Source: Eledone cirrhosa (lineage: Eukaryota). From it: 64,000 bases of DNA. Below are positions 7,601 through 23,225 of the stretch, piece by piece. The stretch covers positions 76,384,001 to 76,448,000 of the forward strand of contig OZ024745.1 of assembly GCA_964016885.1 (NCBI GenBank). Direction: 5' to 3'. Within the stretch, counting starts at the first letter, position 1, and each line of letters begins with the position of its first letter. The notes beneath the pieces are model-generated. The model was not told where the DNA came from and ran no database searches. It saw nothing but the letters and a program-made list of their open reading frames with translations. Position numbers and translations under genes: made by a program.

Positions 7601-7746
7601 CTATAATTACATTTAGGCTGACATATAAAAGCGGTATCATACTGAGGCTGCTTATCCTTAAGTCGAAATTTTAAACAGAACATAACAGAATTTGTAGAAT
7701 GTATGACAAATTTGCCTTGCAGTATTAGTTGCTTTTCTTTACGTTC

Positions 7747-10362: not shown

Positions 10363-11014
10363 AAGGTTTGTTCTCTCCGAACAACATTTATTTGAACTGA
10401 AAAACCGAAATGTTTAGAGAATGCCTCCATCTCCAAAACCCTACTGCATGCTCAGTGTAAATACTAAAAAAACTCGACTGATTTTCAACCACCTTAATTT
10501 GATGTATATACATCCGTTATATCTTTTCTTTCTGTCTCCTTTTCCACACTTACATATTACAATGAACTTTCTGTACTACTGTACCCCATACCAAAATACA
10601 TTTTACCATCTCTGTATTACATTCCACTACATAATACAATTCTTCTCTCATAGCATACAAACACTGACACGTAAATGATCTTGCTTTTCAAATTTACATC
10701 TTGGAGTTATTTTCCTTTGTTATCCTAAACGGACGGTAGTCCGTTTAATAACATTGTTGTGGTCGTGTTTTCGTTGGCAATCGTCTGTTTACGACAGTAC
10801 AGCGCGGCTCTACTTTATTTAACTGAGATAAAACGATAAAACTTATATGAGCATGAACAGTAGATCATTACGCATCTGTTGGCTTAAAAATCTAGAAATT
10901 TGGTCCAGCGGGAAAAAGTTTATAATCAAAGTTTGCTGATAAATCTTGTGTTCAAGTGAGTGAGTAGTAAGCGTGACGCTAGGGGAGGTAATCCAGAAAT
11001 GACGACGTTTGGAA

Positions 11015-11618
11015 TATGTATATTTGTGTACGTCGCCATATATGTATGTATGTATATGTGTATATGTATATTTGTGTATGTCGCAATATATGTATGTATG
11101 TGTGTATATGTATATTTGTGTACGTCGCCATATATGTATGTATGTGTGTATATGTATATTTGTGTATGTCGCAATATATGTATGTATGTGTGTATATGTA
11201 TATTTGTGTACGTCGCCATATATGTATGTATGTGTGTATATGTATATTTGTGTACGTCGCCATATATGTATGTATGTATGTGTGTGTATGTATATTTGTG
11301 TACGTCGCCATATATGTATGTATGTGTATATGTATATTTGTGTACGTCGCCATATATGTTTGTATGTATGTGTGTATATGTATATTTGTTTACGTCGCCA
11401 TATATGTATGTATGTATGTATGTGTATATGTATATTTGTGTACGTCGCCATATATGCAGTATGTATGTGTGTATATGTATATTTGTTTATGTCGCGATAT
11501 ATGTATGTATGTATGTGTGTATGTGTGTATATGTATATTTGTGTATGTCGCCATATATGTGTGTATGTATGTGTATATGTATATTTGTGTACGTCGCCAT
11601 ATATGTATGTATGTGTGT
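11015..11618. repeat. ~42-50 bp minisatellite, ~13-14 copies
   Basis: Unit TATGTATATTTGTGTACGTCGCCATATATGTATGTATGTGTG with variant ..GTATGTCGCAATA..; explains all ORFs at 10843-11679. Confidence 0.95.
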
Positions 11619-12469
11619 ATCGGGCTCACATAATTCTCTATGCGTGATTTGGCTCAGCTCAGCCAATCAGCGCCAGTAGAAGAGGATGTATCCCTACGCG
11701 TTCGGAGGGAGAAATAGCCCGCAAAGATTTGAGGACGCTATCACTTCCAGGCTAGACCGTGTTAAGGTAAACAACACTTGTTCTTTTGCTCCGTAAGCAC
11801 AAACAATATGTAACGACAAAACATTACCTACGTGCCTGACCAAACACCTTCAGCCAGTCGCCCGTATTTTCTCTTGTAATCTTAATTGAATTATTTCATT
11901 ATTCTTGGCATGCCAGCTTAATTCACTTCTAAACATTTTATTAATAAATAATGTAAAAACAAACTAAAATTCGTTGTCGATATTCCTAACCTGGTTCCTC
12001 GAGGCAACAACACAACAACTCTCTAAATATTCTTCTCCGCTAAATTCGAATTTATACCTAAACCAAATTGGTGACAATATATCTACACCAAATTTGTGAC
12101 CCTCGACGATTAAGTATGAAAACGCAGCCTATTTGAATTCGCTAGTCGTTTTAACGGAAATGTGGAGTGGCTTAACATTTGGAATATTCGAATCGGGTTT
12201 CTAGACTCGCTTAGCGTAAGTCCATAAAATTCATAATATTCCATTCGTTGAAGCACGCGACCTACACAATATTTCTGTTATAACTTTCATGGTAACACAA
12301 GTAACTCACGCATACAGACGAACACAAAAATACTACACAAAAGAAAGAGTTTTTTCGACGTCTAACAAAAAATTTCTCTTTTGGATTGAAAATTATTATT
12401 GCGAGCATAGTTTGATAAAAAAAAAAAAAGAATTAAAAAAAAAAAAAGAATTTCTCTGGATATAGAATT

Positions 12470-13396
12470 TTGCTCGGCTTATTCAGTTTTTCCATGGCAC
12501 AGAAATGGAGTATTTCCATTTCGAATCAATACCTTTCACTAAAATCGGGCAATTGGACTGATCAAATTCACATTCATGCCAGTTTTTACAAATCCAAAAA
12601 ACGAAATTATCCTATTTCCAATCAGAAATATAGAACGCGCGAGTTAATCTTATCATTACTCATAATCGGTTGTGTCGAATTGAATCCTGGACCTGAATTT
12701 GAATTCAATGAGACTGACAAAGATCAAAACATTGATAAACAGAATGAAAAACGGAGAAAAACTGCAATTAGGAATAGGGAGTACAGGCAACCGAAAGCTG
12801 CAGAAATAAGAGAAAAAAGACAATCAGACGAAGCAAAATTTAAAAATAAGGCATGGCAAAAAGCATATAGACTGAGAAGAGGCGATGAGGGCAAAAGTCA
12901 GGAGGCATCGTATCAAAAAGTGCGCAGACTGAGGGCAGGTGATGAGGGCAAAAATCAGCATGCATTGAATCAAAAAGAGCACAGAGTGAGAGCAGGCGAT
13001 AAGGGCAAAAGTCAACAGGCATTGTATCAAAAAGCACACAGATTGAGAACAGGAGAAGAAGGAAAAGAAAAAGATGCCATATATTTTTCACATTATTATT
13101 TTACAAATGCACGGTTGATACAACAAAAACACAAATTTTTGTACAGAAAAAAACGAATTCAACGATTTAAAGACATTCGCATGCAAAGGGAAATCATGTT
13201 ACACAAATTCACAAAATCATATTTGGCTTCGAAAAAAGAAAAACCAAAAAATCGGACACAGTATAGGAAGAAATTCAAGCAGGGCCTTGAAAAAGTTTCC
13301 AAAATCTACAGAGAAGCACAGGGAATTCGAAATTTCATATTTAATGAATTGAAAAAAAACAATGGCTTCAGTTTATGCACACATCAAATTAGCTAA
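12470..13396 (+). pseudogene. N-terminal ORF of Helentron polyprotein: 2A-like motif, basic region, 4x19-aa repeat
   Basis: LILSLLIIGCVELNPGP at ~12644-12694; Lys/Arg-rich; continues by frameshift at an A-run (~13360) into 13362..13862. Confidence 0.6.
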
Positions 13397-13566
13397 GAAG
13401 GAGGGGTTGACTGCATACTGGGGGGAAATATTTTACCATACTTTCACAAATGAACGCTTTCTATTCCCCAAAAGTACAGTTGATTATTTTCCTCTAACAG
13501 AACTTGAAAACCACAAATTTCTGATTGATGACTGTCCAACAAATGAGTGCAGGTGTAAAGATGGTG

Positions 13567-13962
13567 ATGAGCCAAGTGAGGGAGGTGCACAAGGAGAGGG
13601 AGGTGAGCAAAGTGAGAAAGGTGCACAAAGTGGGGGGGATGAGCCAAGTGAGAAAGGTGCACAAAGAGGGGGAGATGAGCCAAGTGACGGAGGAGCACAA
13701 GGAAAGGGATGTGAGCAAAGTGAGAAATGTGCACAAAGAGGGGGGGATGAGCCAAGTGAGACAGGTGCACAAAGAGGGGCAGATGAGCCAAGTGAGGAAG
13801 GCAAGCAAAGAGGGGGAGATGAGCCAAGTGAGGGAGGTGCACAAAGAGGGGGGGGGGGGTGAGCCAAGTGAGAAATGTCCACAAAGAGGGGTAGATGAGC
13901 CAACTGATGGAGGTGAGCAAAGTGAGACAGATGCACAAAAAGAGGGGGGTGAGCAAAGTGAC
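13567..13962 (+). repeat. 36-bp coding minisatellite (~11 copies, DEPSEKGAQRGG)
   Basis: Unit GATGAGCCAAGTGAGAAAGGTGCACAAAGAGGGGGA; frameshift in G-run at 13848-13859. Confidence 0.9.
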
Positions 13963-14519
13963 CAGGAAGATTTTGATGGCAGAAAATGTACAGAACTTCT
14001 GACTTTGGCTAGATTGTGCAAATTTGGTCCCCCATCAAATTGCCCAGATCCCACTGCACGTCTAAAGCTAGCTAAACGAATGCACAAGGCCATACATGAA
14101 CTTTCACCTGATTTGACTGTGTCCCAAATTCGGAAAAAAATGGAAATCTCTGAGCAGTGTAAAGGATTCCATAGGGACAACATCTATTGCATAGGACAGT
14201 CTGACTGCACAAATGGACTTGAACTGATTCGAAGTATGGCTCCTCACTCTCCTCGCATCCGTACAATTCTGAGATGTGTGTACAAAGTGAGATCAGTCTG
14301 TGTCTGGCTAGACTCCTATGACATTTCAATCTTGGAAGGAAATTGGTCAATGTTTGATGATCTAGTAAATCCCCAAAACATGTCCAACAATCTGCTAAGC
14401 CGTTTGAATGAGATAGTGGAAAATGAAAATGAGAGCTTGCATTCAGAATCCTCAATCATGGCCAATTTTGCATCCATTATCAAATATTTTAATAAAGAGA
14501 TTCAAAAAATGAAAATCAA

Positions 14520-16380
14520 CTCCTGTGACATTTGCAAACAACGAGAATTAGATGCTAAACTCAAAGTCTGGGAGGATTGGAGCCCTTTGACAAATCCCTA
14601 TCTCCTGGAAACCATTCAACAAAACTACTCTCTACCATGTACGATTTGCTCTACATGTAGAAATAGTCTTGTCAAAAGTCGATAGTGGTCAAAATTCCAA
14701 ATGTGTTGTCAAAGTTGAACATGTATGAGCAGATTTTGATCCAAATGGCCAATTGCTTCATCAATGTCATTAAATTGTCACCCTATCGTTTCAAAGGTGC
14801 ACCATCACATCTAGTAGCTGCTATTAAAGGATTAGCAACTCACATGCCACTACCAGTAGAAAACACAATCAATCATGTAATGAAAAAACTTCCATCGAAT
14901 CAAAATGATGCATTTGAAATAATTGTTGATAGTCTTCCAACTAAAAAGGGCACAATTTGGCGATCGCTAGTGAATATGCAAAATGTCTTTGATGCCTTGG
15001 AGTGGCTGAAAAACAACAATGACATTTACAATGACATTTTGATAGACAGAACCACAAATTTAGAGGACATTGTTACATGCACTGGTGAAAATGTTTCCAT
15101 CAATTTTCCACACATTCTCACACAAACTGGTGCTGAAACAGTCTATGAACAGCATACTGTACAGCAAATCAAGCCTGCACTCCCAAATCAAAAGGACCTT
15201 GAACTGTTTCGCATGAAACGAGTTGAAGGTATTCTTCTTCCGGACAATGATCCAAACCTGGATCTGATGTGCTTCCCCCACTTATTCCCTAAAGGAAAAT
15301 TTGGAATGATGCACATGAACAGACCCCATGGTAGAGTAAAGCCCTACATGTTCATCAGAAACAGACTCAGACATGAGGACCCCCGGTTTCGTAGAGACAT
15401 TCAGTAAATTCTCTACAATTTGGACAAGGCTGACAAACGAGCACTAGATTATGGCATTTATGCCGTAATGAAATCAGTCAAAATTCCAAAATTGACACTT
15501 GCTCAATTTTATAAAAGATTGGAAGACAATGATGAACAATTGGAAAGTGGTTTGTCAATGATGATGGCGAGTGTTCGTGGAACAAAGCCATTTTGGGAAC
15601 GCAAGTGCTCCGACTTGAATGACATAGATGAGAAATTCAGTCCTGCCCATTTGTTTATCACTCTTTCATGTGCTGAATACTTTTGGCCAGGCTTGAGGGA
15701 ATTTTTGGAAAAACTCAATAAAGACATTACAAATGTTGAAACAAGGCCGATAGGGAATCTCTGTGCAAATGATGTTGTGGCTGTCAGTGAGTACTTTCAC
15801 CATCGTTTTAGTGCTGTTTTTCATGATGTAATTTTAAATAAAAAAGGCCCATTTGGGGAAATTATTCATTACTTTTGGCGACTCGAGTATCAACAACGTG
15901 GTGCCCCTCACATTCACCTTAAAGCCTGGGTTCGGGACAGTGTAATTTTTGACAAAGATCCTAAAGAAAAAATCAAGCAATTTATTGAACGCTGTATTAC
16001 TTGCCGGCTACCATCCCCTGTGGCCAGCCCAAACTTGGCAAATCTCGTTAGACGGTTCCTAGTCCATACTTGTGGCAAAGCATGCTGGAGAATAGTTAGG
16101 AGAGGGAAACATTTTCGTAAAAAATGCCGTTTTGGTTTTGCACGTGCAGTGGGGCCATTTCGGTTTTTCTCAGTTTCTGAAAGTATCAAATCACGAAAAA
16201 ATGGTAATGGGACAAAAAAATTGTACCAATTGGAAAGAAAAGAATCAGAAAAGTACATAAATGACTACAATCCATGTTTACTTCTAGCCTGGCAAGCAAA
16301 TATAGATGTGCAATACATTGGTGAGAATAGTATGATTTTGAATAGATATGTCACCTGCTATCAGACTAAGGCTGAAAAAA
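14520..16380 (+). pseudogene. Helentron Zn-cluster/DUF6570-like region and HUH replication initiator (Rep) domain
   Basis: ALEWLKNNNDIY, LDLMCFPHLFPKG, VRGTKPFW, HUH motif PHIH, HTC..C..CRFGF, NDYNP..LAWQANIDVQY, YxxxYxxK. Confidence 0.92.
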
Positions 16381-17027
16381 AATGAGGCTGAGGGAGTGTG
16401 GGCGAATCTGGATCATTCCAAAACAAAATATGGGAAATACAAAAGTGCTGGACTGCAATTGCTTGGGAAAAGGGATACAGGAGGGCATGAAGCTGCTGAC
16501 AAACTTTTGGGGCATCATTTTTACGGGTCATCAGATCATGTTATTTGGGTAGGTGCAGACATTCCCAGTAGGCGCGGCCGCAGATTGAAATCTCAAAATG
16601 ATCTCGATGAACTGAGTGAACACTCAATGGACTTGTTCTACGAGAACATGGTGGAAACTTTTTACAAAAACCGGCCAAAATTCCTGGAAGATTCCTCCTT
16701 ATATGAAGTTGCCAGCAAATATGAGAGGACACAAAAAAAACCTGTTGACAAAGATGTGGCTACAAAAATGAAATTGCTCAATGACAAGGTATTTTCATAG
16801 TGTAAAAGAGCGGGTAGTTAAAGCACCGAATATACAGCTCAAAAATGACACAAAAGAACGTTATTACCACAATCTTCTAATGCTGTTCAAACCCTGGCGC
16901 GATGAGGACAAAGATTTATTGGGGGGCTGCAAAACATTTGAAGAGTCCTTTCATCTGTGTGCAAACAATTTGCCTGATATGGTGAATTTTCAAAATGTGA
17001 GGAAAAAAAATCACTGATGCAGTTGAG

Positions 17028-18240
17028 ATGGGGAAGAGGTTGGAGAAGGAGAGTGAAAAGGAGGGAGAGGTCGGAGAAGGACGGAGAGAAGAGGGGGAGA
17101 AGGAGGCAAGAGATGAGGCTGGTATTGATGTTCCCCAAATTCGAGATGTAGATGAAACTGTTCTACAGACAAAAGAAACACAGCTTAATACAGATCAAAT
17201 ATCCATATACAATCTAATTGTATCAGAAATTGAAAAACAGGAATTGCATTGGAATTCGGAAAAACCACTACCAAGGTGCAGATGTGATGATTGCCCACAA
17301 TTTCTCAAATTTGTCTCTGGTGTAGGAGGTACAGGGAAAAGTTTTCTCATTGATATAATTTCTGACAAAGTTACTCAAATTTGTTGCAAGAGAAATGGGG
17401 CCCGAGTAGTCATTTGTGCACCAACTGGTATGGCTGCTTTCCAAATCAGGGGGACTACTTTGCACAGGCTCTTGAAACTCCCAGTCCAACATGGAAAGTC
17501 ACCATCATATAGGGAATTAGAAAGTGATGAACTCAAAATTTTGCGATCCACTCTAGCGGGTGTCCGTCTGATAATTATCGATGAAATAAGTATGGTCAGT
17601 CATCTGATGTTGGCATTTATCCATAGGCGTCTAGATGAGATTTTTGGGGACCAGAGTCAAATGACCAGCCCTTTTGGAAAAATAAATATTCTGGTTTTTG
17701 GCGATCTACTTCAACTTTCACCAGTAAATGAAAAAACACTCTTTTCCAGTATTTCTGCATATGATGCTAAAAGGACTGGTCTGGGAATAAGTGGGCAGTC
17801 ACTGTGGAAATTTTTCGACTATGATGAACTCACTATAAACATACGGCAAAAAAATGACAGTGAAAACTATTCTGAAATGTTGGGTCGAATAAGAATAGGA
17901 TCACGTACAGACATGGACATCAAGACTTTGAGTGAACATTGCCTATTCCCAGATCCCAGGGCAACAATGAGAGAGGCAACTGAGAAACTAATGCAACTTT
18001 GCACATTACCTAGTCAAAAATTTGTCTGTATTTTGCCTGTCAATGAATCTGTAGATGAATTCAACAAGGAAATGCTTAAGCATGCCAACATCAGTACAGT
18101 TGTAGTTATTGCTGAGGACTCAGGAATGCGCCAGAAAGGTCGTAAAAAAAAGTCAAAGTCAAACAAATTTTCCAAACCAAAAATGGCATCAGACACTGCT
18201 GGACTTGAGACTGAATTGCAAGTTGGAGTTGGGGCCATTC
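17028..18240 (+). pseudogene. PIF1-family SF1B helicase domain, 3' truncated
   Basis: Walker A GVGGTGKS, APTGMAA..IRGTTLH, Walker B IIDEISMV, GDLLQLSPV, LTINIRQ, RIRIG; homology stops after LQVGVGA, so motifs V/VI are absent. Confidence 0.92.
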
Positions 18241-18474
18241 CCTATTATGCACTAATCATCTCAAATGCATTCATGATTTACTAGCTTTGTCATTAAGCCA
18301 GTTGCCTCAACTAGATTGCAATTATACTCAAAAGAACTTTAAAATGTCAATCACTTGTCAGTAATTCACTATGATCATTTAATTATTAGATAGTTGTTGC
18401 TTGCATTGCCTTAAAAAATAGTAGACCAGATAGAAAAATGCGTACAGCAAAAAAAAGTAATATTGTTGGAATAT

Positions 18475-19366
18475 AAACCTTTAAAAATACAGGACAAGAA
18501 ACTAAAATAAAACTTTAAAGAATTGGACAAGAAATAAAAAAATTTACAATAATATTAGTGGCAACATTTTTTTATTCGTTTCCTGTGCTATGCCCCAGTA
18601 TCTTCTTGATTAGTGCATAATAATTGTCATGCTCTCATTGTGCGTTGCCCCTGAGCGGTTTGTTCTGGTTGGGGTTGGTTGGCTGAGCAGTTCTGCTCCG
18701 TCAGAATGACCATTGCAAGAAGAATTGGCAGATGCAGCTGCAGGTCTCCTCCAAGAATGCACTTCTGGTCCCGCAACACCAGACGAAGATGAAGAAGACG
18801 ACCGGGACAAGATGTCGACTCTGACCACCGACTACGGCACCTCCCTCAACCACCGGTCCTCCCTCCCTCTGTCCCGTCATCCCTCCAGTCCTCCTGCTCC
18901 CCCTTCCTGTACCAGAAAGCTGTGGCACGCATTCATCTGGACTGCCGGACTTGAACTCAAGGACAAGATGCAAGGAGAAGATGGACGGGTTGGTCAAGAT
19001 CAAGGATGAGCGGGACGACAAGACCGTCCGCTGCTGCTCAAGATCTGTGCTCATGGGCCCATGGGTCCATTCACATTATGCATGACACATGAGGCGTGTC
19101 GCCGAATGATGAAATAGGGGTATGGTTATGGCCCAATTGGTGTTCAAACCAGGATCAAATTATCCCCCGGTCTGACGACGACCTCTGAATGTGGAACCCA
19201 GAGCCTATGAATGTGGAACTCGATTTTTTACCAATAAAAATTTTGCCACTAATATTATTGTAACATTTTTTATTTCTTGTCCAATTCTTTAAAGTTTTAT
19301 CTTAGTTTCTTGTCCTATTCTTTTAAAGTTTTATTTTAGTTTCTTGTCCTGTATTTTTAAAGGTTT
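18475..19366. repeat. ~100/130 bp inverted repeats enclosing a GC-rich ORF-like cassette
   Basis: 18475-18576 is the reverse complement of 19233-19366 (arms built from a ~30 bp GGACAAGAAACTAAAATAAAACTTTAAA subrepeat, 2 vs 3 copies). Confidence 0.85.
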
Positions 19367-20907: not shown

Positions 20908-21188
20908 AAATAAGCAGAACAAGTAAAATTCAACCAATTTTTCAAAATAAATCAAAATTAATTTAAAATTAAAATTAATCAAAATAAAAAATATAATATA
21001 AATATTTACCTATTCAGATGGCCCTTACTGTACAGTTTCACTTTGCAAAACATTAGATATCCTATATCAGTTGCTTCTACGGTTAGTGAGAGTAGGGTTA
21101 TTCAACCTAAGCAGTTGGTCCGTGCTAGAAGGATTAGATGGGGGAGGTGTGCTACTGAGTAATTATTGGTGTAGTGGCGTGGTGTATT

Positions 21189-23225
21189 AACCGAAAAGCC
21201 CAGGCTTTGGTTAAGGACTTGCATTTGGATAGATTTACCCACCCTTATGTACCAACAACCCCAAGGTTCTCTCTCAAGGACCACAAGCCAAACTTTATAG
21301 AGAACCCATCCATTAGACTCATAAGCCCAACCACATCTGACCTGGGTCGCATCAGTAAGAACATCCTCGATAGGATAATCCCTGGGCTACGGGATGATAC
21401 CATCTACAAGTTGTGGTCCAACACCGGCCAAGTCATCAGATGGTTCTCCGATCTAAGGTCCAAGCAACCTATGAGGTTCATCCAATTTGATATAGACAGA
21501 TATTACGCGTCAATAACCCCGGAACTGCTCAACAAAGCACTAGCCCTAGCAACCACCAACTCTGACATAACCAATAATGAGATTAACATCATACTCATGG
21601 CTAGGCAGACTATCATTGAATTCAACGGAGCACTCTGGACTAGAAAAGATAGAACAGATAACTTTGACATTACGATGGGCTCAAGCGATTCCGCGCAAGT
21701 CACCGATTTAGTTGGGATTTACCTATTACGTAACATCAGAGCCCAAATCCAACCCATGCAAGGTGGAATATACAGGGACGACGCCCTATTTGCAGTCCAC
21801 AATTGCACTAATCGGGGAATCGATTTGCTTAAGAAACAACTTCATAGATTCTTAAAAAATAACGGTCTCTCTATCACCATCGAGCTGAACCATAAAGTAG
21901 TAAACTTCCTAGACGTCACCCTTGATCTCAACAATAACCTTTATAACCCTTACCACAAACCAGGCGAAATACTCACATATTTTAGCCCACACTCTAACCA
22001 CCCACCAGCAGTCATCAGAGCAGTAATCAAATCTATCTCCTATAGGATCTCAATGCTATCAGCAAATGAAGAGATATTTATAAACCACGCACAATATTAT
22101 AATAAGGCTCTCTCTGAATCTGGTTATAAACAATCAATTTATTACATACCAAAATGCCATAACACAGCAACTCACCATAATAAAATTAACACTAGAACTA
22201 GTAATACCTTAGCATATAGCCAGATTCGCCGGAATGTTAGCAGTAACAGCACCTATACAGGGAACTTTAATGGTGGCAGCGGCCTGCTCCCCACTCCTAG
22301 TAGCAAACAAAGAATCAACCCCAGAATAGGAATGAGAAATGAGATGACAAATAACAAACCCCCAGGTAATAATAACCCTAGGAAGGCCCCTACCAACTCC
22401 ACTAGAACCCCTAGAAAGAATAGGCCTAGAAATATCACCTGGCTTAACCCACCATTCTCATCTAATCTAGCCACTAATATCCCCAATCGCTTCTTCTCTA
22501 TCCTATCCAAACACTCCCCCCCTAACCATAGATATTACAAACTCTTTAATAAAAACAACATTAAAATCTCATTCTCCACTACACCTAACCTAGCTAGCCA
22601 CATCGCGTTCAGTAACCATCATAAGCTAAGACACTATAACTCCCACACCGCGGTACCACCACTCCTATCAAATACACCACGCCACTACACCAATAATTAC
22701 TCTAGTAGCACACCTCCCCCATCTAATCCTTCTAGCACGGACCAACTGCTTAGGTTAAATAACCCTACTCTCACTAACCGCAGAAGCAACTGCAACTGCC
22801 GCTACCCCAATGCATGCCCATTAAATGGACACTGCCTGACACCCAACATAGTCTATAGGTTCACAGTTGAGACTGCTTCGAATACCAGCTCGAATACCAT
22901 CGGGTCTACCTCTAACCCTTTTAAGGTACGCTATAACGCGCACTCTTTTTCCTTCCGAGATCCTAGCAACAGATGTTCGACATCGCTAGCTAGGCTCATT
23001 AAAAACCTTAAATTAAACAAAGTTCAACACTCACTAAAATGGGATATCGTGGCTAGGGCACAACCGTTCAATGGACGAAGGAAATCTTGTGATCTCTGTG
23101 TTACGGAAGCGTATTACATAACTCTATCAAGACCTCTACCAATTAACGATAGAACTGAGGTAACCATTAGCTGTCAACATCGAAGGGCTAATTACTTCGC
23201 CAATAGAGTTTTTGACCCAACTTAG
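21189..23225 (+). CDS. Penelope-like reverse transcriptase + GIY-YIG endonuclease (uninterrupted but N-truncated)
   Basis: RT motifs FDIDRYYASI, ITMGS, YRDD, FLDVTLDL, SNHPP; CNCR..CPL.GHC linker; IVY..TIGST, FKVRYNAH, CDLC..E nuclease motifs. Confidence 0.9.
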   Translation, partial: NRKAQALVKDLHLDRFTHPYVPTTPRFSLKDHKPNFIENPSIRLISPTTSDLGRISKNILDRIIPGLRDDTIYKLWSNTGQVIRWFSDLRSKQPMRFIQFDIDRYYASITPELLNKALALATTNSDITNNEINIILMARQTIIEFNGALWTRKDRTDNFDITMGSSDSAQVTDLVGIYLLRNIRAQIQPMQGGIYRDDALFAVHNCTNRGIDLLKKQLHRFLKNNGLSITIELNHKVVNFLDVTLDLNNNLYNPYHKPGEILTYFSPHSNHPPAVIRAVIKSISYRISMLSANEEIFINHAQYYNKALSESGYKQSIYYIPKCHNTATHHNKINTRTSNTLAYSQIRRNVSSNSTYTGNFNGGSGLLPTPSSKQRINPRIGMRNEMTNNKPPGNNNPRKAPTNSTRTPRKNRPRNITWLNPPFSSNLATNIPNRFFSILSKHSPPNHRYYKLFNKNNIKISFSTTPNLASHIAFSNHHKLRHYNSHTAVPPLLSNTPRHYTNNYSSSTPPPSNPSSTDQLLRLNNPTLTNRRSNCNCRYPNACPLNGHCLTPNIVYRFTVETASNTSSNTIGSTSNPFKVRYNAHSFSFRDPSNRCSTSLARLIKNLKLNKVQHSLKWDIVARAQPFNGRRKSCDLCVTEAYYITLSRPLPINDRTEVTISCQHRRANYFANRVFDPT

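Follow-up and report, generated by a model that had tools for sequence, protein, structure and literature searches.

A 2A-like peptide under purifying selection heads the transposase frame of an HLE2 Helitron in Eledone cirrhosa

The window analysed here, a stretch of 64,000 nucleotides of the Eledone cirrhosa genome, carries a broken Helitron copy with a motif of the 2A (StopGo) type near the head of its coding region. The question is whether this motif is a selected part of the transposon and, if so, what it might do there. The peptide RELILSLLIIGCVELNPGP is encoded at 12638–12694 within an open frame (12437–13396). Its core, CVELNPG|P, spans 12671–12694, with the Gly codon at 12689–12691 and the Pro codon at 12692–12694. 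The Gly|Pro junction at 12691/12692 in the first ORF, as given in the original prediction, was thus confirmed. The core is the sole match to (D/G/C/N)(V/I)ExNPGP across the six frames of the window, with 0.0002 expected from residue frequencies. The features of the locus are given in Table 1.

Table 1. Features of the Helitron copy in the window (positions are those of the window).
Feature	Position	Strand	Remarks
Defective HLE2 Helitron copy	10721..19366	+	6 frame changes, 1 stop, internal deletion at 18237, ~50 bp gone from the 3' end
5' terminus	10721..10747	+	(T)ATCC, then a hairpin with a 9-bp stem at 10726-10747; boundary common to copies with unrelated flanks
5' asymmetric inverted repeat	10748..10759	+	two changes in the window copy
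Tandem minisatellite	10990..11620	.	in the 5' non-coding part
Leader, upstream part, predicted	12494..12604	+	from in-frame ATG 12494; 66 aa to the Gly; neutral evolution
2A-like peptide, 30 codons	12605..12694	+	basic stretch, Leu/Ile-rich tract, core CVELNPG|P; strong purifying selection
Transposase, N-terminal part	12695..14685	+	frameshift-broken; basic repeats, conserved N-terminal region, tandem-repeat stretch near 13560-13960
DUF6570 (PF20209)	14667..15407	+	Pfam match
Rep HUH nuclease domain (Helitron_like_N)	15408..16385	+	E 2e-24
PIF1 helicase, first half	17001..18237	+	E 6e-24
Large 3' fold-back	18422..19366	.	arms 18470-18571 and 19236-19337, 91% complementary; 190-nt arms in full-ended copy

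When the window was aligned to the protein of an intact copy, seven collinear segments separated by six frame changes were found, leading through DUF6570, Rep and the first half of PIF1. The frame therefore runs collinearly into Rep and PIF1 across frameshifts, as had been predicted. An in-frame stop lies at 15405–15407. The remaining helicase and the C-terminal UCH protease are missing, as ~2.9 kb is deleted after 18237 relative to the copies L039 and L040. The window copy is dead because of the frame changes, the stop, this deletion and the loss of ~50 bp at the 3' end.

The element was assigned to HLE2 because DUF6570 and UCH are present and an endonuclease is absent. Rep and Pif1 occur together with DUF6570, a marker of HLE2 (PMC11417382, available text). 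The termini agree with this class: a 5' hairpin, a pair of 12-bp asymmetric inverted repeats and an apparent insertion beside T, which flanks most full-ended copies on both sides. The partner of the 5' repeat lies ~35 bp from the 3' end of full copies and is gone from the window copy. In the stem of the 5' hairpin, a paired change from G-C to C-G distinguishes the two subfamilies. The name Helentron, used in the original prediction, fits only if it is taken loosely as HLE2 (Helitron2-type, UCH-bearing). In the strict sense it calls for an AP endonuclease after the helicase, whereas UCH is the last domain of the copies L033 and L034; the two L033 ORFs scanned gave no match to an endonuclease family, and the remaining 3' part has no other ORF of more than 114 aa. 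Canonical Helitrons (HLE1) have a 5' TC, a short 3' hairpin-CTRR and no DUF6570, and the element differs from them in its termini, in its DUF6570 and in its place in the tree, where HLE1 rows are separate.

As far as the accessible parts of PMC11417382 and PMC5148889 go, close known systems are HLE2 Helitrons, with the UCH-bearing subgroups c/d and the 'HLE2-reverse' termini of FoHeli3-5. The shared features are DUF6570, Rep, Pif1 and UCH, a 5' hairpin before an asymmetric inverted repeat of 12 bp, and a T at either side of the element. Unlike those elements, the one described here has an N-terminal 2A peptide, a large 3' fold-back and an animal host. The 3' fold-back measures ~1.1 kb (L050:2171-3287) and its arms of up to 190 nt consist of 34-bp subrepeats; the hairpin is at the 5' end instead, as likewise described for 'HLE2-reverse' forms from Fusarium. 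Full-length copies of the window's subfamily also carry a GDSL/SGNH-like fragment after the UCH frame (L039:924-1295, minus strand; also in L038 and L040). It matches PF14606 below the cut-off (E 0.00085), and none was seen in L033 or L034. Further downstream, the window holds an open frame of 688 codons (21159–23225, plus strand) with no Pfam match. Its motifs look like those of a Penelope-type reverse transcriptase with a GIY-YIG end.

Other copies of the element were searched for in the genome with window 12450–13350 as the query, and 40 of 175 candidates were scored. Among these, 16 were near-full matches at 96–100% identity (window included), and a second subfamily was found at 78–80% identity to the query. 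Of 20 stretches read, one (L033) has an unbroken frame of 1904 codons with the motif (residues 126–133), Rep motif 2, Walker A and a DEISM motif; the helicase end and the UCH protease follow after one stop. A genome-wide search for the pattern GC(V/I)ExNPGP gave 46 matches (control: 0), and all 30 loci read are members of the window's family. Three of these 30 had no match to the DNA pattern; among the 27 in which the core could be read, 25 have it intact. At position -17, the window copy has Glu, whereas Ala stands in register in 24 of the 26 other copies read. One of the 26 has a codon deletion, and the copy in which Cys occupies -18 keeps Ala as well.

Many of the 46 matches come from a young, non-autonomous derivative (L021-L030, L050) of the second subfamily, which has kept the leader, the 2A and 89 further codons. 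The locus L049 (G000:C15:42860400-42870399) holds a tail-to-tail pair of short derivatives, which form a mirror image centred near position 7693.

Selection was assessed on one subfamily pair, the window against L033. The 30 codons ending in NPGP differ by 12 synonymous and 2 replacement changes (pN/pS 0.05), and three other copies gave 0.03–0.06. In the leader upstream, 4 synonymous and 17 replacement changes were counted (pN/pS 1.15–1.5; Fisher p=0.00014 against the 2A block). The rest of the ORF had 353 synonymous and 324 replacement changes (p=0.014). For Rep and the helicase, pN/pS was 0.14 and 0.17; together they had 202 synonymous and 144 replacement changes (p=0.051), so that the excess constraint of the 2A block over Rep and helicase is borderline. 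Of 1546 sliding windows of 30 codons, 11 equalled or beat the 2A block, four of them at the 2A itself and seven in the helicase. A nascent-peptide element would be expected to show this pattern, with a neutral leader before a constrained block as long as the exit tunnel.

These data bear on the possibility that the motif is a passenger, i.e. a piece of a 2A-bearing LINE inserted in the Helitron or a functionless chance match. Donors existed: the genome has 18 matches to the canonical D-type 2A, and 15 of them head Cys-rich ORFs of the non-LTR type with a sequence unrelated to the Helitron. PHD was found in both such ORFs scanned. The other three matches have no Leu tract and look like chance. 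Yet in the Helitron the frame runs into the transposase, and neither an endonuclease nor a PHD finger follows the motif. A non-LTR ORF would have APE, RT or PHD after the 2A, and Pfam found only Helitron domains in P0001. All GC(V/I)ExNPGP loci read belong to one family, purifying selection is strong and the motif is kept in a distant family. The passenger reading is largely refuted, and we give it hardly any weight. Had the first ORF been an unrelated LINE insertion, the original prediction would have been undone; it is no such insertion. A LINE donor of the motif was sought and rejected, as the canonical 2As here head PHD-type ORFs of unrelated sequence; no donor was found. The loci L132-L148 are non-LTR-type ORFs of about two families, with a canonical Leu-rich 2A and then a PHD finger.

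The DNA upstream of the motif is exchanged between copies. Three 5' variants share no homology over 10980–12468. In the other variants, in-frame ATGs at other distances would give leaders of ~80 and ~130 codons. The leader DNA is also present in many further copies, whose match ends at ~12596–12599. In the window's variant, 11538–11940 has a contig depth of ~20,000, against ~100 in the coding part, which marks it as a high-copy repeat piece in the 5' non-coding region.

The same region is relevant to another alternative, namely that the block is conserved for a different protein-level reason, for instance because a protease cuts there or because a spliced exon begins with it, the likeness to 2A being incidental. 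All three 5' variants retain an acceptor-like CAG at 12623–12625 and donor-like GTGAGT sites near 10955, and a UCH protease is encoded by the element. However, none of the three variants has an in-frame ATG 5' of the donor-like sites, so that a spliced upstream coding exon is not supported. Splicing at this CAG would still keep the 23 best-conserved codons (10 synonymous changes, 1 replacement). The full eight-residue core occurs in 53 homologues among the matches listed (see below), which points to the 2A mechanism. We consider a different protein-level role very unlikely. Contigs from four runs showed no splice-type joint in 10600–14600; being of unrecorded kind, they do not bear on splicing or expression either way.

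The window peptide has the sequence features of the 2A class. According to the accessible text of PMC12846837, the StopGo core has been widened to (D/G/C/N)(V/I)ExNPGP, and natural variants with Cys at the Asp position (p12=C) are >95% active. The original prediction was right about the Cys, and the doubt about activity that it drew from this residue is largely answered by those variants. In the data of Baral et al., as far as available, only 139 of 1969 viral 2As with one substitution were highly active. The window peptide matches the widened core exactly, with a Gly ahead of it, and has Leu/Ile-rich residues upstream, comparable to the LLLLSG-like motif of viral StopGo peptides. It differs from these viral peptides (PMC12846837) in that it lies in a chromosomal DNA transposon, that the upstream product is a neutral leader and not a functional protein, and that the case here is made from sequence. 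The block also lies in frame in a longer ORF, the 1904-codon frame of L033, with its amino acids conserved. As expected of a 2A, a hydrophobic, Leu-rich tract (LILSLLIIG) lies directly 5' of the core; it has four Leu at positions -19 to -10.

This tract raises the question of how much protein would be made after the motif. In the available parts of Snell and Matreyek (bioRxiv 10.64898/2026.06.17.732966, PMC13405545), three to six Leu at -19 to -10 go with reduced protein, and 59–70% of retrotransposon 2As reduced protein. The scores there were obtained with 20-mers in human cells, with classes from a model of 86% training accuracy. With its four Leu, the window peptide is like these Leu-rich eukaryotic 'reduction' 2As; a near look-alike, WLKVITALLIIRCIELNPGP, whose source is not given, fell into the class 'skipping, reduced protein'. 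The other of the two C-type NPGP peptides in that table showed fall-off with reduced protein. One coral Helitron-type 20-mer, the same as in homologue P0035, received a non-skipping score in human cells; a coral Helitron-type 20-mer whose protein is filed as 'ATP-dependent DNA helicase' gave fall-off only, and a third tested match, of unchecked origin, was also non-skipping. The word helitron is absent from the main text and four supplements of PMC13405545, and a search of its available tables for the window core gave no match.

The peptide could accordingly be a brake only: ribosomes would stall or fall off, or protein would be reduced, with little restart, full-length or rare products would transpose, and leader trimming would not be the point. 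The frequent reduction by Leu-rich and retrotransposon 2As speaks for this, as do the fall-off scores of the coral and C-type peptides (PMC13405545). Self-restraint has also been proposed for non-LTR 2As, in what is accessible of PMC3708506. On the other side, the Pro after the Gly and the following eight residues are identical between the subfamilies, the nearest look-alike belongs to a skipping class (PMC13405545, accessible part) and the family did make transposase, as its young copies show. We regard a pure brake as unlikely, while keeping it in serious consideration.

The original prediction had offered a further role for the hydrophobic tract, that of a conditional signal. Spelled out, the unskipped product would go to the ER and the skipped one to the nucleus, as has been reported for 2As of sea-urchin NLRs. 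A basic stretch is indeed followed by LILSLLIIGCV, with a mean hydropathy of 3.1, and the 2A-like signal sequences of sea-urchin NLRs are a precedent, with a hydrophobic 2A-like stretch before the mature protein (PMC4981915, as far as accessible). In that precedent, however, the 2A forms the extreme N-terminus; here, from the ATGs found, it would stand after a leader of at least 50 residues and before a nuclear enzyme. The tract has only 9–11 residues, at 50 to ~115 residues from the in-frame ATGs, and secretion is of no evident use to a nuclear transposase. This proposal found little support and is, in our judgement, quite improbable. Another close parallel is with the 2As of APE-type non-LTR retrotransposons (L1Tc, Ingi, CR1, Crack, L2; PMC3708506, available text), which have a Leu-rich tract and GxxExNPGP near the N-terminus and stand behind a short leader at the head of a multifunctional transposition protein. 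The difference from these is that the element is a rolling-circle DNA transposon with Rep-Pif1, has no RT/APE domain and carries Cys for Asp.

Two further families in the genome show how far the motif reaches. In a third family with three decayed copies, a tract ALIILMLLII and QSNPGP are encoded across a slipped G-run of variable length; QSNPGP occurs in two copies, and one copy has Asp for Asn. The motif lies ~130 codons before the region aligning to the transposase, and the same N-terminal region follows downstream. This family is 36–67% identical over 10 aligned segments, with no DNA match to the motif region. By its sequence and place, it retains a decayed version of the motif at the same position. 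A looser motif pattern gave two matches, one in a copy of this family and the other due to chance, in a frame that is closed.

A young sister family (L081-L083 and further matches) has intact Rep-Pif1-UCH frames of 2230–2245 codons at 47–50% identity. No motif within one mismatch was found in the three copies read. The motif is therefore dispensable for the clade, and this 2A-free HLE2 family is a natural control for the 2A-bearing one. No motif was found in the stretches read of five HLE1 loci or of the HLE2 loci L084, L086, L087 and L094, the 5' parts of which may be deleted in both groups.

In other organisms, a search with the Rep region as query found 31 homologues, two with a strict core and one with a one-mismatch core. 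A second search was seeded with a motif-bearing homologue and listed 120 of 222 matches, so the pooled set is enriched for the motif-bearing clade. Among the matches listed, 53 of 143 pooled homologues have a strict core and two a one-mismatch core, against none in 200 shuffles. The strict cores always precede Rep motif 2 where this is present, with Gly|Pro at residues 11–472. Of 51 20-mers, 47 are distinct, and when Rep is clustered at 70% identity the motif occurs in 13 of the 54 clusters (again among the matches listed). Two of the listed proteins (P0056, P0057) have two tandem 2A cores ~70 residues apart, and named matches in the motif-bearing clade are mostly cnidarian among those listed. 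Related elements thus keep the motif in frame with Rep, which the original prediction had put forward as a check: L033, homologues, the second subfamily and, in decayed form, the third family. Neither this check nor the one for a LINE insertion refuted the original interpretation, which the data support.

A FastTree tree of 140 rows was built after rows without Rep motif 2 or sufficient flank had been dropped. The window's family lies in a clade of 18 rows and is the sole motif bearer there, as none of its 17 close database relatives carries the motif. The other 50 motif bearers form part of a separate clade of 117 rows and are at most 27% identical to the window's family in Rep. None of 144 further N-terminal relatives carries the motif; these are mostly fragments, with ~16 long enough. 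Two shorter N-terminal relatives were found, neither extending to the motif position. Two separate gains of the motif are likely from this distribution, by independent origin as we infer it.

The motif, its frame into Rep and Pif1 in an intact copy, the selection on the peptide, the neutral leader and the presence in related families are all observed. On balance, we think it probable that the selected 2A-like peptide heading the HLE2 transposase frame acts by StopGo, trims a disposable leader and lowers output. Translation would start at an in-frame ATG supplied by the swapped 5' end, 66, ~80 or ~130 codons upstream. The Leu/Ile helix and the core would hold the nascent chain in the exit tunnel, and the Gly-Pro bond would be skipped. 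The leader would thereby be released, and the transposase would get a fixed Pro-Glu-Phe start. Some ribosomes would resume and make the DUF6570-Rep-Pif1-UCH protein; others would fall off. Because some resume while some fall off, the peptide may both shield the transposase from a variable junk N-terminus and work as a valve of self-restraint. A dampening role should be added beside the leader release of the original interpretation.

The 2A trick has so far been described for RNA viruses and retrotransposons. Among the top-ranked matches in the openly accessible literature, no report of a 2A peptide in Helitrons was found; the 2A papers checked do not use the word 'Helitron' in their main texts, nor do those of their supplements that were searched. 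What appears to be new here is the class of element, the recoding peptide in it being of a known kind; the sequences compared support this reading well. More tentatively, and with somewhat less than even confidence, we propose that StopGo is a recurrent, undescribed module of HLE2, gained at least twice (in the UCH-bearing lineage and in a cnidarian-type endonuclease clade), which would free the transposase from swapped or captured 5' sequence and set its dose.

Little is known about how autonomous Helitrons express their transposase and keep it in check. A selected 2A at the head of the frame offers a 90-bp handle on Helitron transposase expression. Natural StopGo, known from RNA viruses, retroelements and a few host genes, would thereby reach DNA transposons as well. 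Mechanism and vector work also gains dozens of natural 2A variants, some of them of the Cys type or not rich in Leu. It is also a candidate reason for the tolerance of Helitrons to exchanged 5' ends. If the proposal is true, eukaryotic DNA transposons of the Helitron class would gain their first element for translational control.
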